Below, one piece after another: positions 1,557 to 58,944 of a stretch of DNA of 64,000 nt; positions within the stretch are counted from its first letter, which is position 1, and each line of letters opens with the position of its first letter. Under the pieces are notes generated by a model. The model did no database searches and had not been told where the DNA came from. It saw nothing but the letters and a program-made list of their open reading frames with translations. A program made the translations under genes and the position numbers. This DNA is from Felis catus (lineage: Eukaryota): assembly GCF_018350175.1 (NCBI RefSeq), contig NC_058368.1:68698001-68762000 (forward strand), written 5' to 3'.

Positions 1557-1854
1557 AAGAATGGTGCAGTAACACCATCCAACAGTAACAGTGGTTGGAT
1601 TAGGGTGGTGATGGTAGAGATGGAGAGATGTTAATTGAAACAGAGAGGGATTTAGGAGGTAAAATTAACAAGCCTGTGTAATACCTGGTTAGGAGTGAAA
1701 AGAGAAAGCCATCTCCCGTGTGACCCCCGTACTTCCTGTTTGAACACTGAGTAGCAGTGGGGGCAGTCAAAGCTAGAGGATGCTAGATAAGGACCAAATT
1801 GTCTCTATCTCTTTACTGGCTTAAAATAGTGCAGATCTGTTATCTTACAGTTCT

Positions 1855-2291
1855 GGAGGTCAGAAGCCCAAAATGGAGGTCAGAAGTTCAAAATGGAGGT
1901 CAGAAGCCCAAAGTGGAGGTCAGAAGTTCAAAATGGAGGTCAAAAGTTCAACATGGAGGTCAGAAGTCCAAAATGGAGGTCAAAAGTTCAACATGGAGGT
2001 CAGAAGTCCAAAATGGAGGTCAAAAGTTCAACATGGAGGTCAGAAGTCCAAAATGGAAGTCAAAGTCCAAAATGGAGGTCAGAAGTTCAACATGGAGGTC
2101 AGAAGTCCAAAATGGAAGTCAAAGTTCAACATGGAGGTCAGAAGTCCAAAATGGAGGTCAGAAGCCCAAAATGGAGGTCAGAAGCTCAAAATGGAGGTCA
2201 GAAGTCCAAAATGGAAGTCAAAGTTCAACATGGAGGTCAGAAGTCCAAAATGGAGGTCAGAAGTCCAAAATGGAGGTCAGGAGTTCAAAAC
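1855..2291. repeat. Minisatellite/VNTR, 22 copies of a 20-bp unit (consensus GGAGGTCAGAAGTYCAAAAT; three 19-bp variants)
   Basis: Units parsed by eye from 1855 to 2291; embedded in an MLT1D LTR. Confidence 0.97.
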
Positions 2292-2351
2292 GGGTTTCCC
2301 TTAGGTGAAATCATGGTGTTGGCAGATGGGGTTCCCTTGCCTTCGCAGCTT

Positions 2352-2783
2352 TTTTTTTTTTCCAATATATGAAATTTATTGTCAAATTGGTTTCCATACA
2401 ACACCCAGTGCTCATCCCAAAAGGTGCCCTCCTCAATACCCATCACCCACCCTCCCCTCCCTCCCACCCCCCATCAACCCTCAGTTTGTTCTCAGTTTTT
2501 AAGAGTCTCTTATGCTTTGGCTCTCTCCCACTCTAACCTCTTTTTTTTTTTTTCCTTCCCCTCCCCCATGGGTTCCTGTTAAGTTTCTCAGGATCCACAT
2601 AAGAGTGAAACCATATGGTATCTGTCTTTCTCTGTATGGCTTATTTCACTTAGCATCACACTCTCCAGTTCCATCCACGTTGCTACAAAAGGCCATATTT
2701 CAATCTTTCTCATTGCCACGTAGTACTCCATTGTGTGTATAAACCACAATTTCTTTATCCATTCATCAGTTGATAGACATTTA
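2352..2783 (-). mobile_element. 5'-truncated young feline L1 (ORF2 C-terminus, 3' UTR, poly-A)
   Basis: Minus-strand translation STDEWIKKLWFIHTMEYYVAMRKIEIWPFVATWMELESVMLSEISHTEKDRYHM is the L1 ORF2 C-terminus; poly-T at the left end; 15-bp TSD TTGCCTTC(G/C)CAGCTT at 2337-2351 and 2784-2798. Confidence 0.95.
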
Positions 2784-3219
2784 TTGCCTTCCCAGCTTCT
2801 AGAGGTCACCTGCACTCTGCATCCCTTGGCTTGTAGCTCCTTCCTCCATCTTGAAGTCCTGCAGTTTAACATTTCAAATCTGTGTGTCTTTCTGTCCCCA
2901 CTCCCCACTCTTTCTCTCTCTGATCTCTGCTACTAGTATCATTTCTCCCTGTATGACTCTCACCCTCTGGCTTCCCTCTCATAAGGACCCTCATGGTTTC
3001 ATTGAACCCATCCGGATAATCCTGGATAATCTCCTAACCTTAAGATTTTTAATTTAATCATGTCTGAAAAAAATCCCTTTTGTCATGTAAGGTAACATGT
3101 TCACAGTTTTCTGGATTAGGATGTGGACATCTCTGGGGGACTATCATTCTGCCCGCCACAGAGGTACAACTCTGTAAATGTTTTGAATAGGTAACTAAAA
3201 GAAAACAAATGAAGTGTTT

Positions 3220-6480: not shown

Positions 6481-7449
6481 AAAAGAGGAAACTGAGGCCC
6501 GTCAAATGGAAGTACCTTCCCACCGTGAGGGAGAGAAAAGACTATTCTCACATTCGTTCCACTCCCCGGCACTGCTTCTGTTCGCTGCAGGGTAAGGAGA
6601 GCAGCATCTCAGGAAAATCTCAAGTGTACAGTCAGTGTAGTCTAGCCCTTGTTACACAGCTCTGCCTGCTGCTTTGGTAGGACGGGAGGGTCCCTCTCTT
6701 CTCTTTAAAACAACGACTTGACTGTACTGCTCCCTGACTTCCGTGATGTTTTGCTCTTATCTTTCCCTTCCTAACCGGTGCCCTCTGGCTGCTCCTGCCC
6801 TGTGGACGCGAACACTGTCCCGCTACTTGTCTGCATTCCCGCTGCACCTCTCCTCCACCACCAATCTCCGTCTCATTCCCAAATCCTGCGATGACTCCTC
6901 CCTCGACATCGCTTTACTTCCTTTTTTGCATTTGGCATTAATGACTTACTCGCCGTCTCCTCTCTGAGTCAGACACACGTGAGTTCTTTTGTATGACACT
7001 TTTTAAAAACAGTTTCAAATTCTAGAATACGTGAGAGAGAAAAGGACCAACGTGTGACTATATTCCCGTATTTCTAATGAAACAACAATTATTCAACTGA
7101 TATATTTCCTTCTGGTCTGTTTTCATATTTTGCATATATTATCTCAACTATTTTTTTGTGTTTCCTTGTATTTTTCAAGCTTTTAATTGTTGTATAGTAT
7201 TCAGTAGAGTGTTCAGACCTTAATTTACAGTGATATTTGCTATCCACAATAAAGAACAGAATTCATATCCACGATAGGCTGAATTACTCTAAGAAAATTT
7301 CCAAAATGGGAGCTAACTACAAAGTGTGTGGCCTGCAGTTAACATGCAGTATTGTCCAATGCATAAATAATAATTTTTCAGAAGAAAGACTTCTTGTATC
7401 TGGAGTGCCTCTGAATGGGAATCAGGTTTTTCCAGAATCTCTACATCCC

Positions 7450-7935
7450 TACAGTAGGCTGAAGAATCTCTCCTCCAAAGATGTCTAAGTCCTGATCCCT
7501 AGAACTTGTGAATATGTTACCGTACGTGGCAGAAGGAACTTGGCAGATGTAAGTGTAGGATCTTGAGACCAGGGAATTATTTTGGCTTATCCATGTTGGG
7601 CTCAGTGTCATCACAAGGGTCCTAGGAGGGAGGTGAGAGCGTGAGAGAAGGCAATCTGGCCATGAAAGCAGAGGTTGGGGTGATGTACTTTGAAGATGGA
7701 AGGAGCCATTGGCCAAGAATGCAAACAGCCACTGGAAGCTGGAAAAGGCAAGGAGAGGGATTCTCGCCTGTCACCTCCTCAAGAAATGCAGGTCTTCCAG
7801 CACCTTGGTTTTAACGTGTAGAACCCATCTGCACGTTAGGTTCCAGCCTACGGAACTGTAAGATAATAAATGTGTGTTGTTTTAAGCCACTAAGTTGGTG
7901 GCAATTTGTTGCAGCAGCCACAGAAAACTAGCACA
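7450..7935 (+). mobile_element. MLT1D-like solo LTR
   Basis: CCAAAGATGTCTAAGTCCTGATCCCTAGAACTTGTGAATATGTTAC...GAAGCTGGAAAAGGCAAGG...GAACTGTAAGATAATAAATGTGTGTTGTTTTAAGCCACTAAG...GAAAACTAGCACA. Confidence 0.9.
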
Positions 7936-13399: not shown

Positions 13400-13628
13400 T
13401 TTTTTTTTTTTAATTCTTATAATGTTTATTAGTTTATTGTTGAGAGAGTAAGAGACAAGAGTGTGAGCAGGGCAGGGGCAGAGAGAGAGGGAGACACAGA
13501 ATCGGAAACAGGCTCCAGGCTCCGAGCTGCCAACACAGAGCTCGATGCAGGGCTTGAACCCATGAACCGAAAGATCATGACCTGAGCTGAAGTTGGACCC
13601 TTAACCGACTGAGCCACCCAGGCGTCCC
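13400..13628 (-). mobile_element. Can-SINE
   Basis: Poly-T, (GA)n and ...GACTGAGCCACCCAGGCGTCCC; flanking repeat AAGTGCTCT. Confidence 0.94.
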
Positions 13629-22833: not shown

Positions 22834-23166
22834 ATGTGGTATAATGTGGCATAATGTGATTGATATATATAATGAAATACTACTTAGCCATAAAAATGAA
22901 TGAGATCTTGCCATTTGCAATAACATGGGTTGACCTAGAGCATGTCATGCTAAGTGAAGTAAGTCAGGGACAGAGACAAATACCATATTATGTCTCTTAT
23001 ATGTAGAATCTAAAAAGCAAAACAGATGAATGAACAAAACAGAAAGAGACTTGAACAAGCTGGTGGCTGGCAGAGGGGAGGGGTGGGGGGTGGTGAAAGA
23101 GGTGAAGGGGATTAAGAGGTATAAGATTTCAGTTATAAACGAAATAAGTCACAGGATATAAAGTAC
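22600..23166 (+). mobile_element. Older L1 3' end (carnivore/L1MA-type) with internal TA/TG microsatellite
   Basis: GGTATTTACCCAAAGGAAATGAAA...TGCACCCCAGTGTTTATTGCAGCATTATTTACAA...GAGATCTTGCCATTTGCAATAACATGG...ATGCTAAGTGAAGTAAGTCAG. Confidence 0.92.
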
Positions 23167-38525: not shown

Positions 38526-40276
38526 TCCTTCGGGAACTTTTTGAGACCGTCTTGCTTTGGGGATCACTGTGTAATTCTTCAAGCTCCTCGGGGTCACTGC
38601 TGTGTCTTGCTCATCTTTAGATCGTCCATGTTTCGATTGGGACCGATATATGGCAAGTATTTGATAAATCCTAATCAGATGAGTGAAGGAGTGGATCCAG
38701 GTAGGGCAGAAATGCTGGGAGAAGCAAAACGAGGCAGAGTTGGGACAGAGCATTGGAAAGAGTTTCATTAAGGAACATTAGACGGTAGAAAATCAAAACC
38801 AGTTCCATTTATTTTTTTAAATGCTAGCTTGTACTCAAAGCTGCACTTATACACACACCTGACTCTACTTCCTGAAGCTAGTCCATCCCTTCACTCGGGG
38901 ATAACGGTGTCTCCTCCTAGGCAGTGAGCTCACATACCCCCGCTTGTCACAGAGGCTCATCGTGACCCCTCCAACATCGCCTTTTTCCTCAATCGCACCC
39001 ACTTCTCCACCTTCTGGAAAAGAGGTCACTCCCGTTCCATCAAAGAGCCCTCCTGGGGATCTGGGCTGCTCATGGGACATCAGTGAAGCACGAAATCCCA
39101 ACTCTGCAATAGCTCACGCCAAAGTTGGCATCAAAGTGGTTTTCCATCGGGGGTTGTGACTCTTCCCTGGTCTTCACACACGTGACTCTAACGACCCTGG
39201 GAAGCACCTGAGGAGATGTTACTTCAGCTTGGATGCTCCGCCTCAAACACAGTTTCTTACTCATCCCGTACCATATTTCCGTCCCCCCACGTTTTATTTA
39301 TTTATTTAACGAATATTCATCATCAGTCCCATGTGCCAGGTTCTGTACTCAGCACTTGGAATATACCACTAGACAAAACAGAAGAAGCCCCCTGCCCGTG
39401 AGGGGCTTATACTCCAGTGGAGAGAGGGAACGACAAACAGTAAACATCAAGGACACGTTTGATGGACGGGAGCCACGACGCGCGTCCGGACGCGCGGGAG
39501 CCGGAGCTGTGGGAAAGGAAGGGAAAATAGAGCGAGTTGCTCTCCTCCCATCCAGGGGCTACTGGACCCCTGGCCAGCGTGACCCCTCATTCAGGAGCTG
39601 GGTAGGAGGTAATGGATGGACAAATCTTCGAAGTCAGCCCACGGGAGGGAGAGCGTGCCGGCCGCCTAGAGCATTTCCGGTTTGGGGGATTCTCTTCTCC
39701 GTCAGAAACACCGCTTTAATACGAGGAGGGGGAGACGGGGCCTAAGAATATTCATCCTTTATCATAGGGAAAAGATCAAATTATCGTGGACACCGCAGTA
39801 CATATGAAGGAAGCATGGTCGTTCCCGCCAGCCTAGGAGAACGGTGGGGATAAGCAGCGAAAGGTATGTATAAAGACTCATTATTCCTTCCTCTTTGCAC
39901 TTATTTCCAGAATTCACCATTTTGAAAGGCAACGGTTATGAGCAAGTGCCTTTCCCCATGAATAGCTGGCAGCATCAGCGTCCTCTTTGTTTCATGTTCT
40001 TTTCTCTTGGCCCCACAAGCATCTGAAATTCTGGAGGACTATTAGCCTCACCCCCATTTCAGAAGCTTGTTTTCAAATGACCTCAGTTTCAAGGCGGGGC
40101 ATGTCCCGCAACCTCTGACCTGACCTTCTTTCTGCAACTTCAAATGCTCTTAGGCCTCAGGACAGTAGGCCTGATGCAAGTATCACATCAGGAAAAAAAA
40201 AAAAAAAAAAAAAAAGACAATGGGACCCTTGACATTGGCTGACATTGGCCAGCCTACTGGGCCCCTTGCCTTAGTG

Positions 40277-40885: not shown

Positions 40886-41562
40886 AATGTTAATTAAAAA
40901 AATTTTTTTTAACATTTATTCATTTTTTTTTTTTAATTTTTTTTTTCAACGTTTTTTATTTATTTTTGGGACAGAGAGAGACAGAGCATGAACGGGGGAG
41001 GGGCAGAGAGAGGGGAGACACAGAATCGGAAACAGGCTCCAGGCTCCGAGCCATCAGCCCAGAGCCCGACGCGGGGCTCGAACTCATGGACCGCGAGATC
41101 GTGACCTGGCTGAAGTCGGACGCTTAACCGACTGCGCCACCCAGGCGCCCCAACATTTATTCATTTTTGAGAGACAGAGTGGGAATGGGGAGGGGTAGAA
41201 AGAGATAGAAAGAGAGAGAGAGAGAGAAGGAGACACAGAATCCCAAGCAGGCTCCAGGCTCCAGCTGTCAGCACAGAGCCCAATGCGGGCCTCGAACCCA
41301 CAGACCACGAGATCATGATCTGAGCCGAAGTCAGATGCTTAACGGACTAAACCACCTAGGCACCCCTATTTATTTTTGAGAGAGAGACAGATAGAATGTG
41401 AGCAGGGGTTGGGGGAGAGAGAGAGACACACAGAATACAAAGCAGGCTCCAGGCTCTGAGCTGTCAGCACAGAGCCCTACACGGGGCCCAAACTCACAAA
41501 CTGGGAGAACATGACCTGAGCTGAAGTCGAATGCTCAACCAACTGAGCCACCCAGGCGCCCC
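40886..41562 (-). mobile_element. Three nested Can-SINEs (heads ending at 41151, 41366 and 41562)
   Basis: Outer TSD TCTAGTGATTATTTTTTT (40868-40885, 41563-41580); innermost TSD AACATTTATTCATTTTT (40911-40927, 41152-41168). Confidence 0.95.
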
Positions 41563-44238: not shown

Positions 44239-44404
44239 GGAGTGCACAGGCCGTGAGAGAAAAACAACAGGTGGGACCTAAACTCATCTTGGGGGTCAGG
44301 GAAGAGTTCCCTGAAGAAAAGGCTTCTGATTAGGCTAGAGAGGTAGGTTAGGGCTGGATATCATGGGACCTTGTAGGCCATGTTGAGGACTCTTGTCTTG
44401 TTCC

Positions 44405-44737
44405 CAAGCCCAAGCTGCCATAACAAAATGCTACGTAGACTGAGTGGCTTAAACCACATAAATGTGCTTTCTTGGGGTTCTGGAGGCCAGAAGTCTGAAA
44501 TGAGCTTGCAGTGTGTCAGGTTCTGGTGACGGCCTGCTTCTGGCTGTGTTGTCACTTGGGTGAGAGAGAAACGATCTCTCTCCCTGATGTCTTCTCTTTT
44601 AAGGGCACTAATTCCATCATGAGAGTTCCACCCTCATGACCCAATTGTCTCCCAAAGACCTCATCTCCAAATACCATCACGTTGGGGCTGAGGGATTCAA
44701 CACAGGAATTTGGGGGAGACGCAGTTCAGTCCATCAC
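44405..44737 (-). mobile_element. MLT1A-like solo LTR
   Basis: GCTGCCATAACAAAATGC...TGGCTTAAAC...TTCTGGAGGCCAGAAGTCTG...AAGGGCACTAATTCCATCATGAG...CCAAATACCATCAC...TTCAGTCCATCACA. Confidence 0.88.
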
Positions 44738-46445
44738 AAAGATTTCGAGCAGAGAGAAGAATGTAGAATCATCAGAATTCTACTTTCAAGTGAATTCTTA
44801 TTTTGACTGATGTGTGGAAAAGGGACTGAAGGGATCAAGAAAATATGCAGGAGGCCAGCTAAGAGCCTGTTTCAATAGTCGTGGTGAAAGACACAGATAT
44901 CTTGGACAAAACTGCACTGGCAGAGATGGAACGAAGGGAAACATTTCTAAACATTTAGTACTGAACCTAACAGGCTTTGATAATGGCTTTCGCATGGCGG
45001 TTGGGGAGAGAGCATCAAGAATGACCACCAGGTTTTTGGCTTGTGCAATTGGATGGATATGATAGCAATTCTCGAGATAGGAATCATGAAATCAGCAAGT
45101 TTACTCATGGCACCTCACTAGATACGACGAAAATGTAGAAAGAACAGTAAGAGTGGCCATTGTTTAGTGAACATTTGTCATGTGTCAGCCACCGTATAGA
45201 TGTTTTAAGTACATTATCTTGATATACTAGGCAAACCTTGCCTTCCGAGGTGGGGAGATCAGCTCACTATTAGGGGTTTAATGGCCTGGTAAAACGAACA
45301 GCGCAGAACGCTTTCAGAGGAGGAGAACGTCAGAGAAGACAATGTGAACAGAGAAGCCATAACAGACAAATGAGGATGCAAGCCGAGGTCTAAAGGTTGG
45401 ATAAGATTTTGTTAAGTGAAGCCCTTGGGAGTCAGGTCTGGGGATGGACTGTGGGAGCCAGGTCCCGGAGAAATGAGCATGCCTCCATCAGGAGGTTCAC
45501 TTAGGAAAACAGTGTAGAAAAAGTTGAGTTAGAAAGCGGGGGGGGCAGGTTATGAAGAACGTTGAGAGTCTGTGATTTGGATTTTAAGAAAGGAGGCATT
45601 GAATATGAGAGGAGCATGACTTTGCATGATGGGAAAACCTGTCTGGCAACAGGGAATCTTCTTGAACGTGGGGAGGCTTGATCCCAGAGGCCAACTTACT
45701 GGCATTTATATTATCCAGGTATCAGATCAGAGTTCTTCACTAGCCAGGAGGAAAAATCAACAAGACCTCATTTCATTGAATGAGAGTAGGAGAACGAGTC
45801 AAAGATGAGTCGAATTTCAGGAACGAAATGAAGGGAATGGTAATTTCATAGGCAGAACCAGAGAGGTGGGAAAGAGGAGACAACCTATGGTTGTCCATTT
45901 GCGTGCAGTATAATACTGAGTGTATCGCTAGCTAAAAATAATTTTCTACCTGTTTGACCGTAGAGATTATTTAAATTTTCAGAAAAAGATCGTAGTAGAC
46001 AGAAACCTAAAAGTTATACGTGACGGATTTACACTGGGATGAAAAACTGTTGTAATTATTATTGTAAGTATAAAATCAGAGGGGAATAATGTGTGATATT
46101 CTATTGAAGAAATAGCCTAGAAATCCCAGGAAATGCTGTGTTTTTAAACCGCAGTTAGCAAAATCAAGGGAAACCATTACATCCCACCCCAACTGGTACT
46201 TCATTACAGATGCACTGAACAGTTGCTTATAAACAATAGTGTGTTGGTTCAACCTTCCGGATGAATGGGGCTTTGTTCCTGCTTTGGTCTGGTCTTGGAA
46301 TCATGACACTTCATTTTTTAAATTCAGAATGTTGTGTTTAAGTGGAAGGAAAATGTATGCTTCTTTTTGTGTTTTCCAAATGCCATATGAGTTTTTTCAG
46401 AGCTTGCAGGAGCACTGTTGACTGGAGGGAAAAACAAATAACCCA

Positions 46446-46949: not shown

Positions 46950-47392
46950 TCCACGGCAGACGCTGAATTGTTTCTCCTTTTTCAAAAACCAAAACCCCAA
47001 AACCGAACCCATGCTTTGTCAGATGGGAGAAGGACTTCGGCTTCTCCTGCACAACCTGGGTTTCTTTTTTGAATCTGCGAGTCGGTATCGTCGAAAGTCT
47101 TTACAGCGCAGTCCCAGGCTCTGGGCTGGCTGTCTTGGAGGGTGTTTTCTCCAGCTACCCCTCTCCCGGCTCTGCCAATTATGTGCCACTTTGTCTTGGT
47201 GCTATGATTGCTTTCTTCGGAGAGGGAAATTCCTCTTTCATCAGTATGGACGCACTGTTTTCACACACCGCAAGTGCTGTGCTGCTGTGTCACTCATCCT
47301 ATAAGAGCCAGTTTCAGACGAGGAGGGCTGACGAGCTGCCCGGGGATTGGCTGCCCCCGGCTGGGAGGGATTTGTGGGGAGGAAGGGCTGCA
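46950..47392 (+). promoter_or_regulatory. Proximal promoter of the exon at 47393-47611
   Basis: Repeat-free with locally raised GC/CpG; inverted CCAAT box (ATTGG 47346-47350), G-rich GGGAGG motifs (47363-47387) and TATA-like TATAAGA (47300-47306) directly upstream of the exon. Confidence 0.62.
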
Positions 47393-47490
47393 GCTTTACA
47401 GCAACAGAGTTTAGACTGTCTTTGCTTCATCATCTGAAGGCAAAATTTTCCAGATACGGCAGACGGCTCCCAGAGTACAATACACAGGGA

Positions 47491-47526
47491 ATGAGGACTA
47501 TTTACATGGAAATTTCTGCCTCATGA
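47491..47526 (+). other. uORF1 (MRTIYMEISAS*) in the 5' UTR exon
   Basis: ATG 47491 to TGA 47524-47526, read directly; translation not demonstrated. Confidence 0.5.
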
Positions 47527-47606
47527 TGCAGCGGAGAAGCCTCGGCCGCTGGATTCTGCCAGATGTTCCCGGGGTTACTGTAAAAGGGAAAAAGAGGCAG
47601 AGCTAA
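47523..47606 (+). other. uORF2 (MMQRRSLGRWILPDVPGVTVKGKKRQS*), overlapping the uORF1 stop (ATGA)
   Basis: ATG 47523 to TAA 47604-47606, read directly; ends 5 nt before the splice donor. Confidence 0.5.
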
Positions 47607-48963
47607 ACAAGGTAAGAGAATCACCCCCCCCCCTTTTTTTTTTTTTGAATGTTTAAAGAGTTTGCTGCAGTATATGGTGCATTCCATGTGTGTTGCTTAG
47701 GGAAGCCAGGGAAACCGGATTCCACTAATTCAAATGTAACACTTGCCGGGGACCCTGGAGTTTTACGTAACATTTTGATTTGAGGAAAAAAAAAAAAAAA
47801 AGAGAAAGAAAGAAAGAAACGGCAAAAGCTTGAATCTGTGCCGCCTGACTGGGGTGAGGCATAAAACGAGTGTTTATTTCAAAGAAGAGATCCATTTTAT
47901 TACTCAACAAAAACTGTGAATTCCTGGGAGCGTTCTTATTTTCTTGTTCTAGAAAATTTTCATGACTGCCCCAGTTCGCTCCCGAATAAATAAAGTTTAC
48001 ATTGATCCTGCTATTTGAAAACGGACTCGTAATGAAGAAGAAAAGGAAAACTTCATAGTAAATAACCATCGGTTGAATGTTTAGCCAAAAATACGTCTAT
48101 GTGTTAGAAATTAGGGACCCACCTAGCCCTATAATGCCACGGCTTTGAGTTTCAAAAGCACATTTTTTAACAAGCCAGCAAGAGGTAGCTTTCTGACAAG
48201 TTTTCGATACTGTAGTTCAATGTTTACATTTCTTTTTCTGAGCCTTTGTTTCCAGCTTAAAAGTGGAACCATTATATTCAAAAGTAAAGCTGGGTTAATA
48301 ATGCTTACTGCAATTATCTGATCTTTATGCATTTTTAATGAGAACACACAGCCAGCAGAATAATTTAATGAGGGCAGGCTGGCTTTTAAAGCTGTGTCTT
48401 CACTATGCCGAACCATATCAACTTTCTTGCCGAGAAGCAGCAGGGAGAAATGATGGAGATTTATTTTTAACACACTTGGCCCAAGAGAAGGAAATGATAT
48501 ATTTGTTAAAGAATTCTTTCTGCCCTTTTCCGTTTTAAATTTCTGCCAGGCATGAGGAAACTGTGCTTTTTTGTTAGGCCTCGGAAGCATGTGTTTACAA
48601 TAAATGTGTAACATTTTTAGAATAGTTAGCAAGCACTGAAGCGAAGAAAAAAATCTGACTTGCCTAACCACTACTACCGCGAATGCTCTTCGAGAAACAT
48701 TACTGTCCTTTTAAAAGACAAAGGTTAAGTGGAAAGACAATTTGTTAATTTGGTAATATGTGCATTGGGGAGCTAATAAAGTGGGGGAAAAAAGGAGGGC
48801 ATGCTTATAATCTTTAAATAAGATGAAATTTCTTCAGCTATCCTGCCTGTTTTCTGAGGAGCAGTTCAAATATTCATTTAAATAAGGGCAATGCCACGTA
48901 GATTCTTCCAGACCCACTGTTTTTACTTTCAAGGAGAAGTGCAGGACACTAGCCCAGAACTTC

Positions 48964-49776: not shown

Positions 49777-52205
49777 AAAAGAAGTCATCTGTCTCTTGCC
49801 ACAATGAGCTATTTAAAGTACAAAGGGATAAAACCTCCGTATTAATGAAACAGTTGGCAAATGCCTTAGGGTATTAAGATAAATAGTCATATTTCCAGAA
49901 CCCTTCACTCTGCTGTGTGCTCAGGTCAATTTTCTAGGGATATTTATCCTTAAACCAACAAACAAAATTTCCAAGGAATTCAGAGCATTGCTGTTTGCAT
50001 TTTCTCCATTGATCTCATGCAATATACCAGAAGCTGTGCCAACCAGACTATTTCAGACGTAGGCCTTGTAGTGCCCAAAGCATTTAGTGCTATTTTTGCT
50101 TTGACTTTGCATTAAATTTGCAAGAGTAGATTGAATAAGAGAGAGAATATGAGGAAAAGAGGAAAATACGCTTGCAAAATATACTGGTTATGTAGCTTTA
50201 CTGGTTACCGGCCTGCCTCCTCTCTGCTAGTTGTTTTAATTTGCTGTTGCTATGGCGAAAACAAATCAATATCACATGGCCACCAGCCAGTCCCGCGCTC
50301 GGGGAGCGCCATCGAAATTCAAGATCAGGCACTCAAGATTCCGAGCGAGAATTGGGAGAAAAGCATTTAGATTTGAGTTTGAGAGAATTCCTGACGATAG
50401 ACTGACCAGGCTCAGTCTCTCGTGCCCTTCCTCTCCCTTTCCTCCTGCACTTTCTTACTGATAATGAGAGAAGATGGGGGAAGAAGGCATATTGATTTGT
50501 TTACATTTTCCAAAACGACAAAACGTATCGTCAGCATAGAAGCGGGTTGGTAACGTTGCAAGGGGTAAAGGATTCTGACTGATGAAAGGTGATAAAACTG
50601 TGGGGCATGTTTGTTGAAAACATAGTTTGGGGGCCTTGGATATCTCTGGGTACAGCTGCACCTGAGAGCTGACAGGGTCAGAAACAGTTACTGTGTCATA
50701 TCAGGCAGAGAAATCTGGCAGCTCGAGAGAGCGGGGGCAGTGGAGGCGAGGGGCATTAGAGAAAGGTGGGGGTGTAAACCATCAGCCAGTAGCAAAGTCA
50801 AGGCAAAGCTGTAGGTCCAGAGTCAGGCCAGGTGAGCACGGAACCCCAGGGACAGAGAGGAACAGGGTAAAGGACTTCGCTCCTTTCACAAAGTCTGCCC
50901 GAAGGCCTGGCAAGGAAAGAGAGGAAGGGGCTGCAGAGAGAAGCAAAGGGGTCATGCGCCCAGGCGTCCTTTCTGGAATGGTCCACCGAACCAGATGGGC
51001 GGAGTTGCGCTTGGCCGCGTGGAGCCAGGGACTTGATATTTCACGCGTTGGTTTCTCTCGGAAGAACGAGGCAGGAAGACGTAGCTGGGCTTTTAAATTA
51101 GTTACAATACAGTGTTTTTCTCCTGTTTTTTTTTTTTACTCAGCTCAGTTGTTTCTTAGGTTTTGTGTGCAAACTGGGGGTTGCAGCTGTGATAACATTC
51201 ATAGTAAGCAGTCCAGGGTGGCGTCAAGGCTGCATCAGGTCGGTGCCTCCGAAGGCTCGGCAGCCGAGGCTAGTCCCACTTCTGTTGTGAGAGTGAAAAC
51301 AGGTGTGAAAGGTAAAGCCCCAGGGTTTCTTTTGTGAACCTGAGCCACAGGCCAGTGGACAAACTTTCAGCTGGCCCGCTCCCCTTGACGCGGGAGAAAC
51401 GCTTGGTAATAAAAGTGGACCCAACGACTTACCTTAGCGCTCTGACAAAGAACGCATTGTCTAGAAGATGCTAGGTCAGTATATTCCATCAATCAGTCAA
51501 CAAGTGTTTATTAAACACCTCTTGGGTTCTCTGGCTTTTGCTATTCGGTTAAAACGAGTCAATTACCTAATACCTGACTTAGTGTATGTGCAAAATCAGC
51601 GGCAGAAAGAAATGATGCAAAATTGTAAGTTTTAAAGACTTTAATAAATGTATTGGTTAATGTTAATTTCACCTTGACTATCAGGCATTAATTGTAGGTT
51701 TCAGATCGTTCTTGGTGTTTGGTGGGGGGAGAATAAGGGAAGGGATTTTGAGTTTTAAATGTCTATATGCACTTTCCTCACCTCTGTTACTTTCCTCAGC
51801 ATAAATGCTGTTTAAATAACATATAAAGATGTAAGATGAGCAATAGACCTATGAGAATGTGCTGTAAAGTCCCAAATAAGAGGCCACTGAGAGCAATCAC
51901 CCAGTCTCAGCAAGCTGAGATTCAGCCCCAAAGTGACTGGGGAATATGGACGCATCATCTAAAAAGCCTTAACACCAGTCACCAAAAGGAAATCCTAGAT
52001 CCTCTCCCATACTCCAGAGCCTCGGGGTACCTAGGAGCCCCTGATGTAATTATCTTGCCATCCCCGTCCTAGTAAGGAAACCTGATTCCCCACCCTGGAG
52101 GATTAAACTACCCCCACTTTTCCCCTTAAAAACAGTTACTTAAAAAAAAAAAAAAGGTTTCCCCTTTTAAACACAAAGTTTTTGCTTTCCTTTGCTTATT
52201 TGTTG

Positions 52206-57492: not shown

Positions 57493-58944
57493 AGCTTAAA
57501 GACCTAAAGATGTCAACTTATTGATACCTTAAATAGATAACATATGTAAAAGCCCATTATCGGCTGTGGGGCATGTACAAGAGGGAGATGTGTTGTGTTG
57601 TGGCTTTGCTGTGCTCTGTGAAAGTTCTTCGAAACCGCTTTTCTTGTCCCCCGCCTTCCCTCTTCTCTCACACGCGTGTCTCCCATCCTCTGCCGAGGCC
57701 CGTGCTGCTTGTTTCTAGTGCGTGTACCCACCATCCTGTTTCTTGCTTGGCCTGCTCCTGAGCCAGCCCATCGTCTCTTTTCTCTTGCTCTTCTCTCTGC
57801 CGAGGCATCTCGCCCGGGCACCCCTGCTAACGGGCACACGTAGTTGCCCACTGCTCCCGGGGTTCCGCTCACACCTGGCTCTTAGCTGATAGAAAGGTCT
57901 ATTTATTTGCCCCCTTAGGAAGCCCATCCTTCCAACCCTACAGTATCAGCTTCCTGGCAGCCACCACAAAGACCATCCCCTCAGGAAACAAAACAAACCC
58001 TATCTCCAGAGTTCCCCTGTTTCTTTTCTTTCAAGTTCCCCGTTTGCTAGTAGGCTGCAATTAAGAGTCAGGATCAAAGGGAACTAGCTGCCTCTGGGGC
58101 TGCAGGGACCCACCAAGAACTTTGGTCTCCTTAACTCCTTACTCCCTGTGATCTGCTCACCTGCACCTCTCTGTTCCGCTGGTGCTCAGGTGTTGGGGCT
58201 GCGGGAGCTTGGGGAGACGCCTCGGGGCCTCAGGAGGGGCTCCTCACACACGCGAGACCCTAACAGCCCCTCCTCCCGATTTACAAAACCCACAAACATA
58301 AGGTGAAGATCGGAGGCAATCCCAAATTGGGAAGAATTGGAGGGATTATCTAGCACAGCTCACGTCTACCCCCCCCCCCCCACAGCCCTGCTACCCAGGT
58401 TCTCATGGCTTCTTTCCCCTCTGTTGACTGGACAGTCACTGCCCCAGAGTGCTTACGAACTACAACATTCTGTTGTAAAATTCAGCCTTGTGCTGAGACA
58501 AAATGTGACTCCAGTGACCTTCACTCTCCGGCCCTCGTTTGGGCCTTTGGAGTGACCCAGATGCTTCTTCAGTGGGTGAGTCTCTTCATATATTGAAAGA
58601 TGGCAATCAGGCTGCCTCTCATAGGAGCAGCTGGCAGCTCCCTTATTTAGGATGTAATACATTTATTTATGCAACTTAGCCCGCTCTGAGTTTCTCTTGG
58701 GTTGCTCTGAGTTTCTCACGTTGACCCACATCGCTATCCTACTTGAACCTTGAACCAGCTGTGTTAGAGAAAGGGGTGGGGCACGCCGTGTTCCCTCAGC
58801 TCTGTGCAGGTGAAGTGAGGAAGGTCAGACATCTTCCCCAATGGCGTGGGATGCTTAAAAATTTTTGTCCATCCCAACAAGAGGCTATAGACGCCTTTGG
58901 AAATACCTGGCAAGATGCTGGGCATTGACTTGCAAAACCACCCA

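Follow-up and report, generated by a model that had tools for sequence, protein, structure and literature searches.

A 22-unit minisatellite in its sequence context

The window analyzed here, a stretch of 64,000 nt from Felis catus, holds a tandem array of short units, the dispersed repeat that hosts it, relatives of that repeat and a putative first exon (Table 1). Tandem Repeats Finder assigned the array a period of 20 bp, 22.0 copies, 86% matches and a score of 657, together with a higher period of 99 bp. It is the sole long minisatellite among the 34 rows that the program returned for the window, with head-to-tail units inside the 10–100 bp range of that class. The 22-copy array that an earlier note had placed at 1855–2291 is thus real, its coordinates shifted by one base. 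Eight units are identical and the mean unit identity is 89%; by type, the units follow each other in the order CDFDBABABAGHAEACIAEAAJ. The + strand of the array is 68% purine and lacks CpG.

Table 1. Positions of the array, its host repeat and related features in the window
Feature	Position	Strand	Remarks
Left remnant of host LTR, apparently truncated at its left end	1813..1853	+	blastn, local alignment
Minisatellite, 22 units	1854..2290	+	19 units of 20 bp, 3 of 19 bp; 10 unit types
Seven perfect DR2 motifs	1877..2287	+	starts 1877, 1917, 1937, 1977, 2017, 2076, 2274
HNF4-specific motif CAAAGTCCA	2061..2069	+	only in 19-bp unit 11; DR1-like spacing, damaged 5′ half-site
Host LTR continuation after last unit	2291..2349	+	ends in left target-site duplication copy (2337–2349)
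5′-truncated, poly(A)-tailed retroposon fragment	2350..2783	-	poly(T) at left end on +; splits host LTR
Right part of host LTR, terminal CA	2784..3160	+	2957–3153 aligned with 7647–7457 (-)
Single unamplified unit homologue	44481..44500	+	in second LTR-like element (~44400–44740); 3 mismatches
Putative non-coding first exon/promoter region	47390..47611	+	canonical donor after 47611; start approximate

The commonest unit (8 of 22) reads AGGTCA-GA-AGTCCA, one base short of a consensus DR2. AGGTCA is present in 19 of the 22 units and a perfect RGKTCA-N2-RGKTCA in seven (units 2, 4, 5, 7, 9, 12 and 22), exactly as the earlier note had counted, leaving 15 units without a match. Six of the seven perfect motifs lie in units 1–12 and one in the final ten. 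In total, 28 perfect half-sites fall within 437 bp and also give eight DR6 spacings across unit junctions. CAAAGTCCA, previously noted in one 19-bp variant, has a single copy in the array and one elsewhere in the window (15591, -); CAAAGTTCA is found in units 14 and 19. The motif definitions used in the earlier note for DR2 and HNF4 agree with the literature (PMC1785376, PMC3384313; here and below, cited papers stand for the parts of their text that were available).

About 45 kb separate the array from the putative first exon, a stretch at 47.4–47.6 kb that we take to resemble an MBNL2 5′ exon. A mildly CpG-rich bin (47501–48000, CpG o/e 0.62) lies beside it. A six-frame scan of the window revealed no MBNL-like CCCH coding exon; its single CCCH hit was rejected, since a stop immediately precedes it and the surroundings are not MBNL-like. 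The array itself does not appear close to a promoter or TSS, being CpG-free and followed by no CpG-rich 500-bp bin before 6.5 kb. Patches richer in GC and CpG occur at 6501–7000, 39001–40000 and 51001–51500 (o/e 0.61–0.71, GC about 0.5) and could be enhancers or alternative promoters. CTCF-like matches with one mismatch, from a consensus scan that is weak evidence, lie at 6791, 15924, 38019, 47364, 57046 and 62534, and a lone perfect DR1 motif is located downstream of the putative first exon at 58756 (-).

The exact length of the array rests on the assembly, and an artefact had been named in the earlier note as a condition that would overturn its proposal. Among the distinct 31-mers of positions 1400–2400, 298 of 842 (35%) touch inner units. 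At least half of 86 sampled words are carried by 20 of the 24 runs listed; when the top-scoring run and its study are left aside, seven further studies remain, with best shares of 0.84–0.90 and two organism labels. A share of 0.85 in a run lacking the array has P ~1e-5 if words are sampled at random. The other four runs listed carry only 0.28–0.35 of the words, which is no evidence for absence of the array. No listed run exceeds a share of 0.91, a shortfall that a SINE tail and contig breaks explain as well as a difference in copy number between alleles would. Since runs from seven independent studies carry the words of the array, and its ten unit types form a block structure, an assembly artefact is scarcely credible.

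The array sits inside an old dispersed repeat at about 1813–3160, since its left flank and the right part of the repeat both match a copy at ~7457–7893 (-). With blastn, 1813–1859 aligned with 7893–7847 (-) of this LTR-like copy at 78.7% over 47 bp, and 2957–3153 reached an alignment score of 124 against its 7647–7457 segment (shuffle maximum 35). The left flank plus the first unit aligned locally with the copy at 44445–44500 with a score of 43 (best of 200 shuffles, 30). Three other comparisons stayed within the shuffled range: 2291–2349 with the 44481 copy, colinear by eye (26, not above a maximum of 27), the host's right part with the copy at 44.4 kb (31, not above 34), and 2251–2348 with the 7.4–7.9-kb copy (22, not above 30).

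The retroposon that splits the host is framed by a 13-bp target-site duplication with one mismatch at 2337/2784 and matches 22855–23025 at 70% over 173 bp; it is presumably an L1-like 3′ end. This minus-strand insert, poly(A)-tailed and spanning 2337–2796 with its target duplication, starts 46 bp past the array. When the insert and the extra units are subtracted, 484 bp of host remain. We take the host to be an MLT1-type MaLR solo LTR, with MLT1D and MLT1A as putative subfamily labels; its remnant length and right-end CA are compatible with MLT1D, and no more than compatible. The host also contains, at 3012, the window's single occurrence of an 11-base word from the unit of a published human minisatellite with MLT1D flanks (PMC4411736).

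The single related copy that the earlier note had placed at 44482–44501 was found one base to the left, three mismatches from the commonest unit. It is the sole site in the window outside the array within five mismatches of that unit, and its half-site positions read AGGCCA and AGTCTG, neither of them consensus. In a third MLT1-like LTR copy at ~7457–7930 (-), the counterpart of the unit has diverged and is not amplified. The unit thus has a single-copy homologue in a dispersed repeat, and the left flank of the two is colinear. Together, the homologue and the flank alignments support the previously proposed origin from an LTR segment and make the array an LTR-born minisatellite, a known kind of locus.

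Unit turnover and the source of the DR2 motifs

The unit starts with TGG, and CGG follows the last unit while TGA follows the homologue, giving a microhomology of 2–3 bp at most. The Haber–Louis model places direct repeats of 5–10 bp on either side of the amplified motif (PMC6947457), longer than those shared at the array. Within the array, exact internal duplications span 89 bp (offset 40) and 73 bp (offset 99), and all four gametes occur in five column pairs of units. This pattern points to recent block duplication plus exchange between units. For comparison, 15 long hits among the SINE copies of the window share about 80% identity with the query copy, and the figure for LTR copies is 68–79%. 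The 89% identity of the units, set against that of the LTR copies, argues that the last turnover was much younger than the host LTR; homogenization hides the date of the array's birth. Secondary structure was rejected as a driver: the single-strand fold of 1954–2290 (-) had z = -1.6, and 6 of 100 shuffles folded equally well.

Seven unit columns vary, by eight changes, of which one improves the DR2, four are neutral and three damage it (a G>A in the 5′ half-site, a spacer deletion and a T>C in the 3′ half-site). The improving change is C>T at column 15, which perfects the 3′ half-site and is common to all seven perfect DR2s. T, the commonest variant, occupies this column in 10 of 22 units and C in the other 12; three further units with T are broken by other variants. 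The homologue at 44481 has C at this column, so T is most simply derived, and, as all seven motifs carry the same C>T, they are copies of one change and not seven events. Directly after this column, every unit has CA where the homologue has TG, suggesting that a methylated CpG decayed on one strand in the array and on the other in the homologue.

The spectrum of variants departs little from neutrality. A random substitution is expected to produce 3% gains, 47% losses and 50% neutral outcomes; with eight changes, the perfecting one would turn up at least once with a probability of 0.24. The recent 73-bp duplication contains no perfect DR2. In a neutral coalescent for 22 units, run 20,000 times per setting, at least seven perfect DR2s arose in 2.8–3.2% of cases; when only the allele frequency is considered, the analytic probability is 4–8%. 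The coalescent is post hoc, ignores indels and conversion, and was applied to an array chosen for its motif, so the ~3% result is only a hint that leans against pure drift.

The array itself exceeds chance expectation, and a near-DR2 unit is uncommon per array. When 21,137 overlapping background 20-mers were made tandem, 0.03% gave a perfect DR2, 0.17% were one mismatch off and about 0.5% came within one mismatch of some DR1–5, the near-DR sites in this background being few and mostly in SINEs. The human genome contains 502,491 TRF arrays with units of 6–100 bp, mostly short (PMC8024321). By this rough count, tens to hundreds of near-DR arrays would be expected per mammalian genome.

Elsewhere in the window, five DR2s have at most one mismatch, and four of these lie within SINEs. 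One of the 18 SINE-like hits carries a perfect DR2 and three are one mismatch away, one of which differs only by a retained CG; these sites lie at 13568 (-), 6321 (+), 23496 (-) and 24929 (-). The SINEs are tRNA-derived: an Rfam scan gave two tRNA-like hits only, both in SINEs, as suits a carnivore genome. Three same-strand copies follow in quick succession at 41008–41561 (-). The SINE near-DR2s may be a carnivore counterpart of the DR2 expansion in Alu elements, and SINEs could supply more sites than the array does.

Taken together, we consider it probable that the receptor motifs are a by-product of amplification in an ordinary LTR-born minisatellite. An old MaLR-type solo LTR contained one 20-bp near-DR2 segment, consisting of AGGTCA and an imperfect second half-site, and slippage would have duplicated this segment, which has ~3 bp of microhomology at its flanks. 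Growth and turnover may then have proceeded via slippage, unequal exchange and gene conversion, spreading variants in 40-bp and 99-bp blocks and shuffling them. The change from AGTCCA to AGTTCA at column 15 reached ten units and yielded seven intact DR2s, other unit changes damaging the motif. As naked DNA, the perfect units would be bound by RAR/RXR or COUP-TF; in chromatin, the array would most likely behave as the great bulk of repeat-borne DR2s do, with no measurable effect on a neighboring gene. Thus, judged from sequence, the DR2 matches most likely come from copying, and gene control by the array is a candidate function only.

Receptor binding and alternative readings

DR2 motifs are abundant in repeats: 102,359 human DR2s lie in Alu elements, and about half of mouse DR2s are located in LTRs (PMC1785376). 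Several repeat DR2s bind RAR, and most are expected to have no role in gene regulation in any one cell (PMC1785376). In mouse ChIP-seq, 929 hits at RAR peaks were recorded among more than 877,000 DR2/DR5 matches, about 0.1%, so motif presence predicts RAR binding very poorly (PMC3091300). When tested on DR1 probes, RXR and COUP-TF2 strongly disfavor the TC of AGTCCA, which is a mark of HNF4 sites if preceded by CAA (PMC3384313); in the array, unit 11 alone has this CAA. RAR/RXR-bound regions often hold several motifs (PMC4446430), and tandem half-site repeats recruit COUP-TF2 and TR4 at ALT telomeres (PMC3518223); a cluster of 22 units is therefore a better candidate than a lone motif. As the array contains no CpG, methylation of its own bases cannot block binding. 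Monomer sites for ROR/Rev-erb, SF-1/ERR and NGFI-B were discounted on visual inspection, since a G precedes AGGTCA.

The earlier note had proposed a variable cluster of DR2 RAREs acting as a distal retinoid enhancer that tunes a gene ~45 kb downstream, putatively MBNL2. This proposal is unsupported, given a commonest unit that is not a consensus DR2, the near-neutral variant spectrum and the distance to the putative promoter, and we consider it improbable. It can draw on the seven perfect DR2s, on the identity of unit 22 to an Alu DR2 that recruits RAR in vivo (PMC1785376), on the neutral-model probability of about 3% and on the existence of VNTR enhancers at TRIB3 (PMC7425993) and SIRT3 (PMC12776774). 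Known causal cases, however, lie in promoters or amplify a pre-existing element, as at TRIB3 (PMC7425993). Only 163 of 2,672 polymorphic gene-proximal human VNTRs are associated with expression, and such association is twice as frequent within 100 bp of a TSS (PMC8024321). Five CTCF-like one-mismatch matches and several CpG-richer patches intervene before the putative promoter, which is weak evidence, and DR2s are common in the SINEs of the window. An extended version, in which turnover of a felid-lineage array enriched perfect DR2 units and one HNF4 unit and so produced a distal enhancer or silencer tuning the splicing regulator MBNL2 between individuals, is just as doubtful; that its strength would be set by repeat number and by unit composition is equally hard to credit.

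Somewhat less unlikely is occupancy of the array in vivo by promiscuous receptors (COUP-TF/NR2F, TR2/TR4, RXR partners), which would make it a passive docking site or weak silencer and not an RA-inducible element; HNF4 binding at the 19-bp unit in liver, kidney or gut, which belongs to the same idea, is unlikely to a similar degree. The half-sites recur with the 20-bp period (1.9 helical turns) in alternating DR2 and DR6 spacings, and 28 perfect ones in 437 bp form a dense cluster. NR2C/F receptors bind tandem half-sites at spacings of 0–8 and are recruited to them in cells (PMC3518223), and COUP-TF2 is expressed widely and chiefly a repressor (PMC3384313). The telomeric case, in contrast, spans kilobases of repeats, and the 12 units with C at column 15 carry the TC of AGTCCA that COUP-TF2 and RXR disfavor (PMC3384313). 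Far less likely than either receptor reading is a row of cryptic splice donors, used if a long upstream + strand transcript crosses the region. Human MBNL2 has 5′ isoforms that start about 80 kb upstream of its main first exon, which would suit such a transcript, and a GT site matching 6 of 9 donor-consensus positions is found in 16 units (1854–2290, +). Matches of this quality, however, occur at 3.2 per kb in the rest of the window, and the sites are predicted ones. The by-product reading remains the one we prefer.

A protein-coding role was rejected. All three + frames are open across the array (1787–2372), a composition effect that arises because the + strand of the array lacks stop triplets. 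The array contains 20 ATGs, mostly at unit junctions and in A-rich context, with no sign of coding.

Among the literature matches listed, none ties MBNL2 to an RA enhancer and none describes a VNTR made of DR2 elements, subscription papers lying mostly outside this scope. The same literature (VNTR enhancers, MLT1 and nuclear receptors, LTR-derived TF arrays) yielded no description of the present locus, and the available parts of PMC3252374 and PMC12776774 mention no DR2-unit VNTR. Composition from DR2 units is the one unusual feature of the array. A VNTR has been called an enhancer from motif clustering alone before (PMC3762855). Seven units of the cat array match the DR2 consensus; as a functional RARE cluster or regulatory VNTR, the array is a candidate at most.

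Comparison with known systems

As it stands, the array offers a clean, easily typed LTR-born minisatellite in which the history of unit turnover can be read. If it did bind receptors and tune a gene, it would be a case of neutral repeat DNA turned by tandem amplification into a hormone-response element, one that both length and unit composition could adjust. Few enhancer VNTRs are documented, according to a 2025 review (PMC12776774).

On the features of its sequence, the array belongs to the LTR-derived minisatellites and works like them. Minisatellites from MaLR LTRs are known in mouse (Ms6-hm, PMC6947457) and in human, where a 33-bp array at 16q24.1 is flanked by MLT1D (PMC4411736). As in these loci, a short MaLR LTR segment is amplified in tandem, with LTR on both sides and imperfect units. 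Unlike in the human array, another segment of the LTR is amplified in cat, over 0.44 kb compared with 8.7 kb, and polymorphism has been demonstrated for the human array and is a candidate property of the cat array (PMC4411736). A receptor motif is reported here for the cat array, and none is reported for the human 16q24.1 array or Ms6-hm in the available text (PMC4411736, PMC6947457).

The motifs resemble the DR2s of Alu elements, in which AGGTCA-nn-AGTTCA was likewise made from a near-consensus repeat segment by point change, and of which a few bind RAR in vivo and most probably do not (PMC1785376). The Alu DR2s, however, are dispersed single sites from CpG decay in the B box, whereas those of the cat array are tandem and LTR-derived, and the change that perfected them is a non-CpG C>T (PMC1785376). 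The CA/TG contrast with the homologue suggests an earlier CpG decay adjoining the perfecting site.

Tandem TF motifs are shared with the 33-bp promoter VNTR of TRIB3 (PMC7425993), the 72-bp intronic VNTR of SIRT3 (PMC12776774) and eVNTRs (PMC8024321), and copy number and internal variants could set occupancy as in those cases. In contrast to the cat array, known from its sequence, these VNTRs are backed by reporter or eQTL results. At TRIB3, what is amplified is a conserved promoter element (PMC7425993), whereas in cat a repeat fragment, 45 kb away from a putative promoter, served as the seed. Variant telomeric (TCAGGG)n in ALT cells is a further tandem half-site array made by repeat turnover (PMC3518223). 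There, hexamer repeats extend over kilobases and binding has been demonstrated, whereas the cat array is short and interstitial, has 20-bp units and presents motifs only (PMC3518223).
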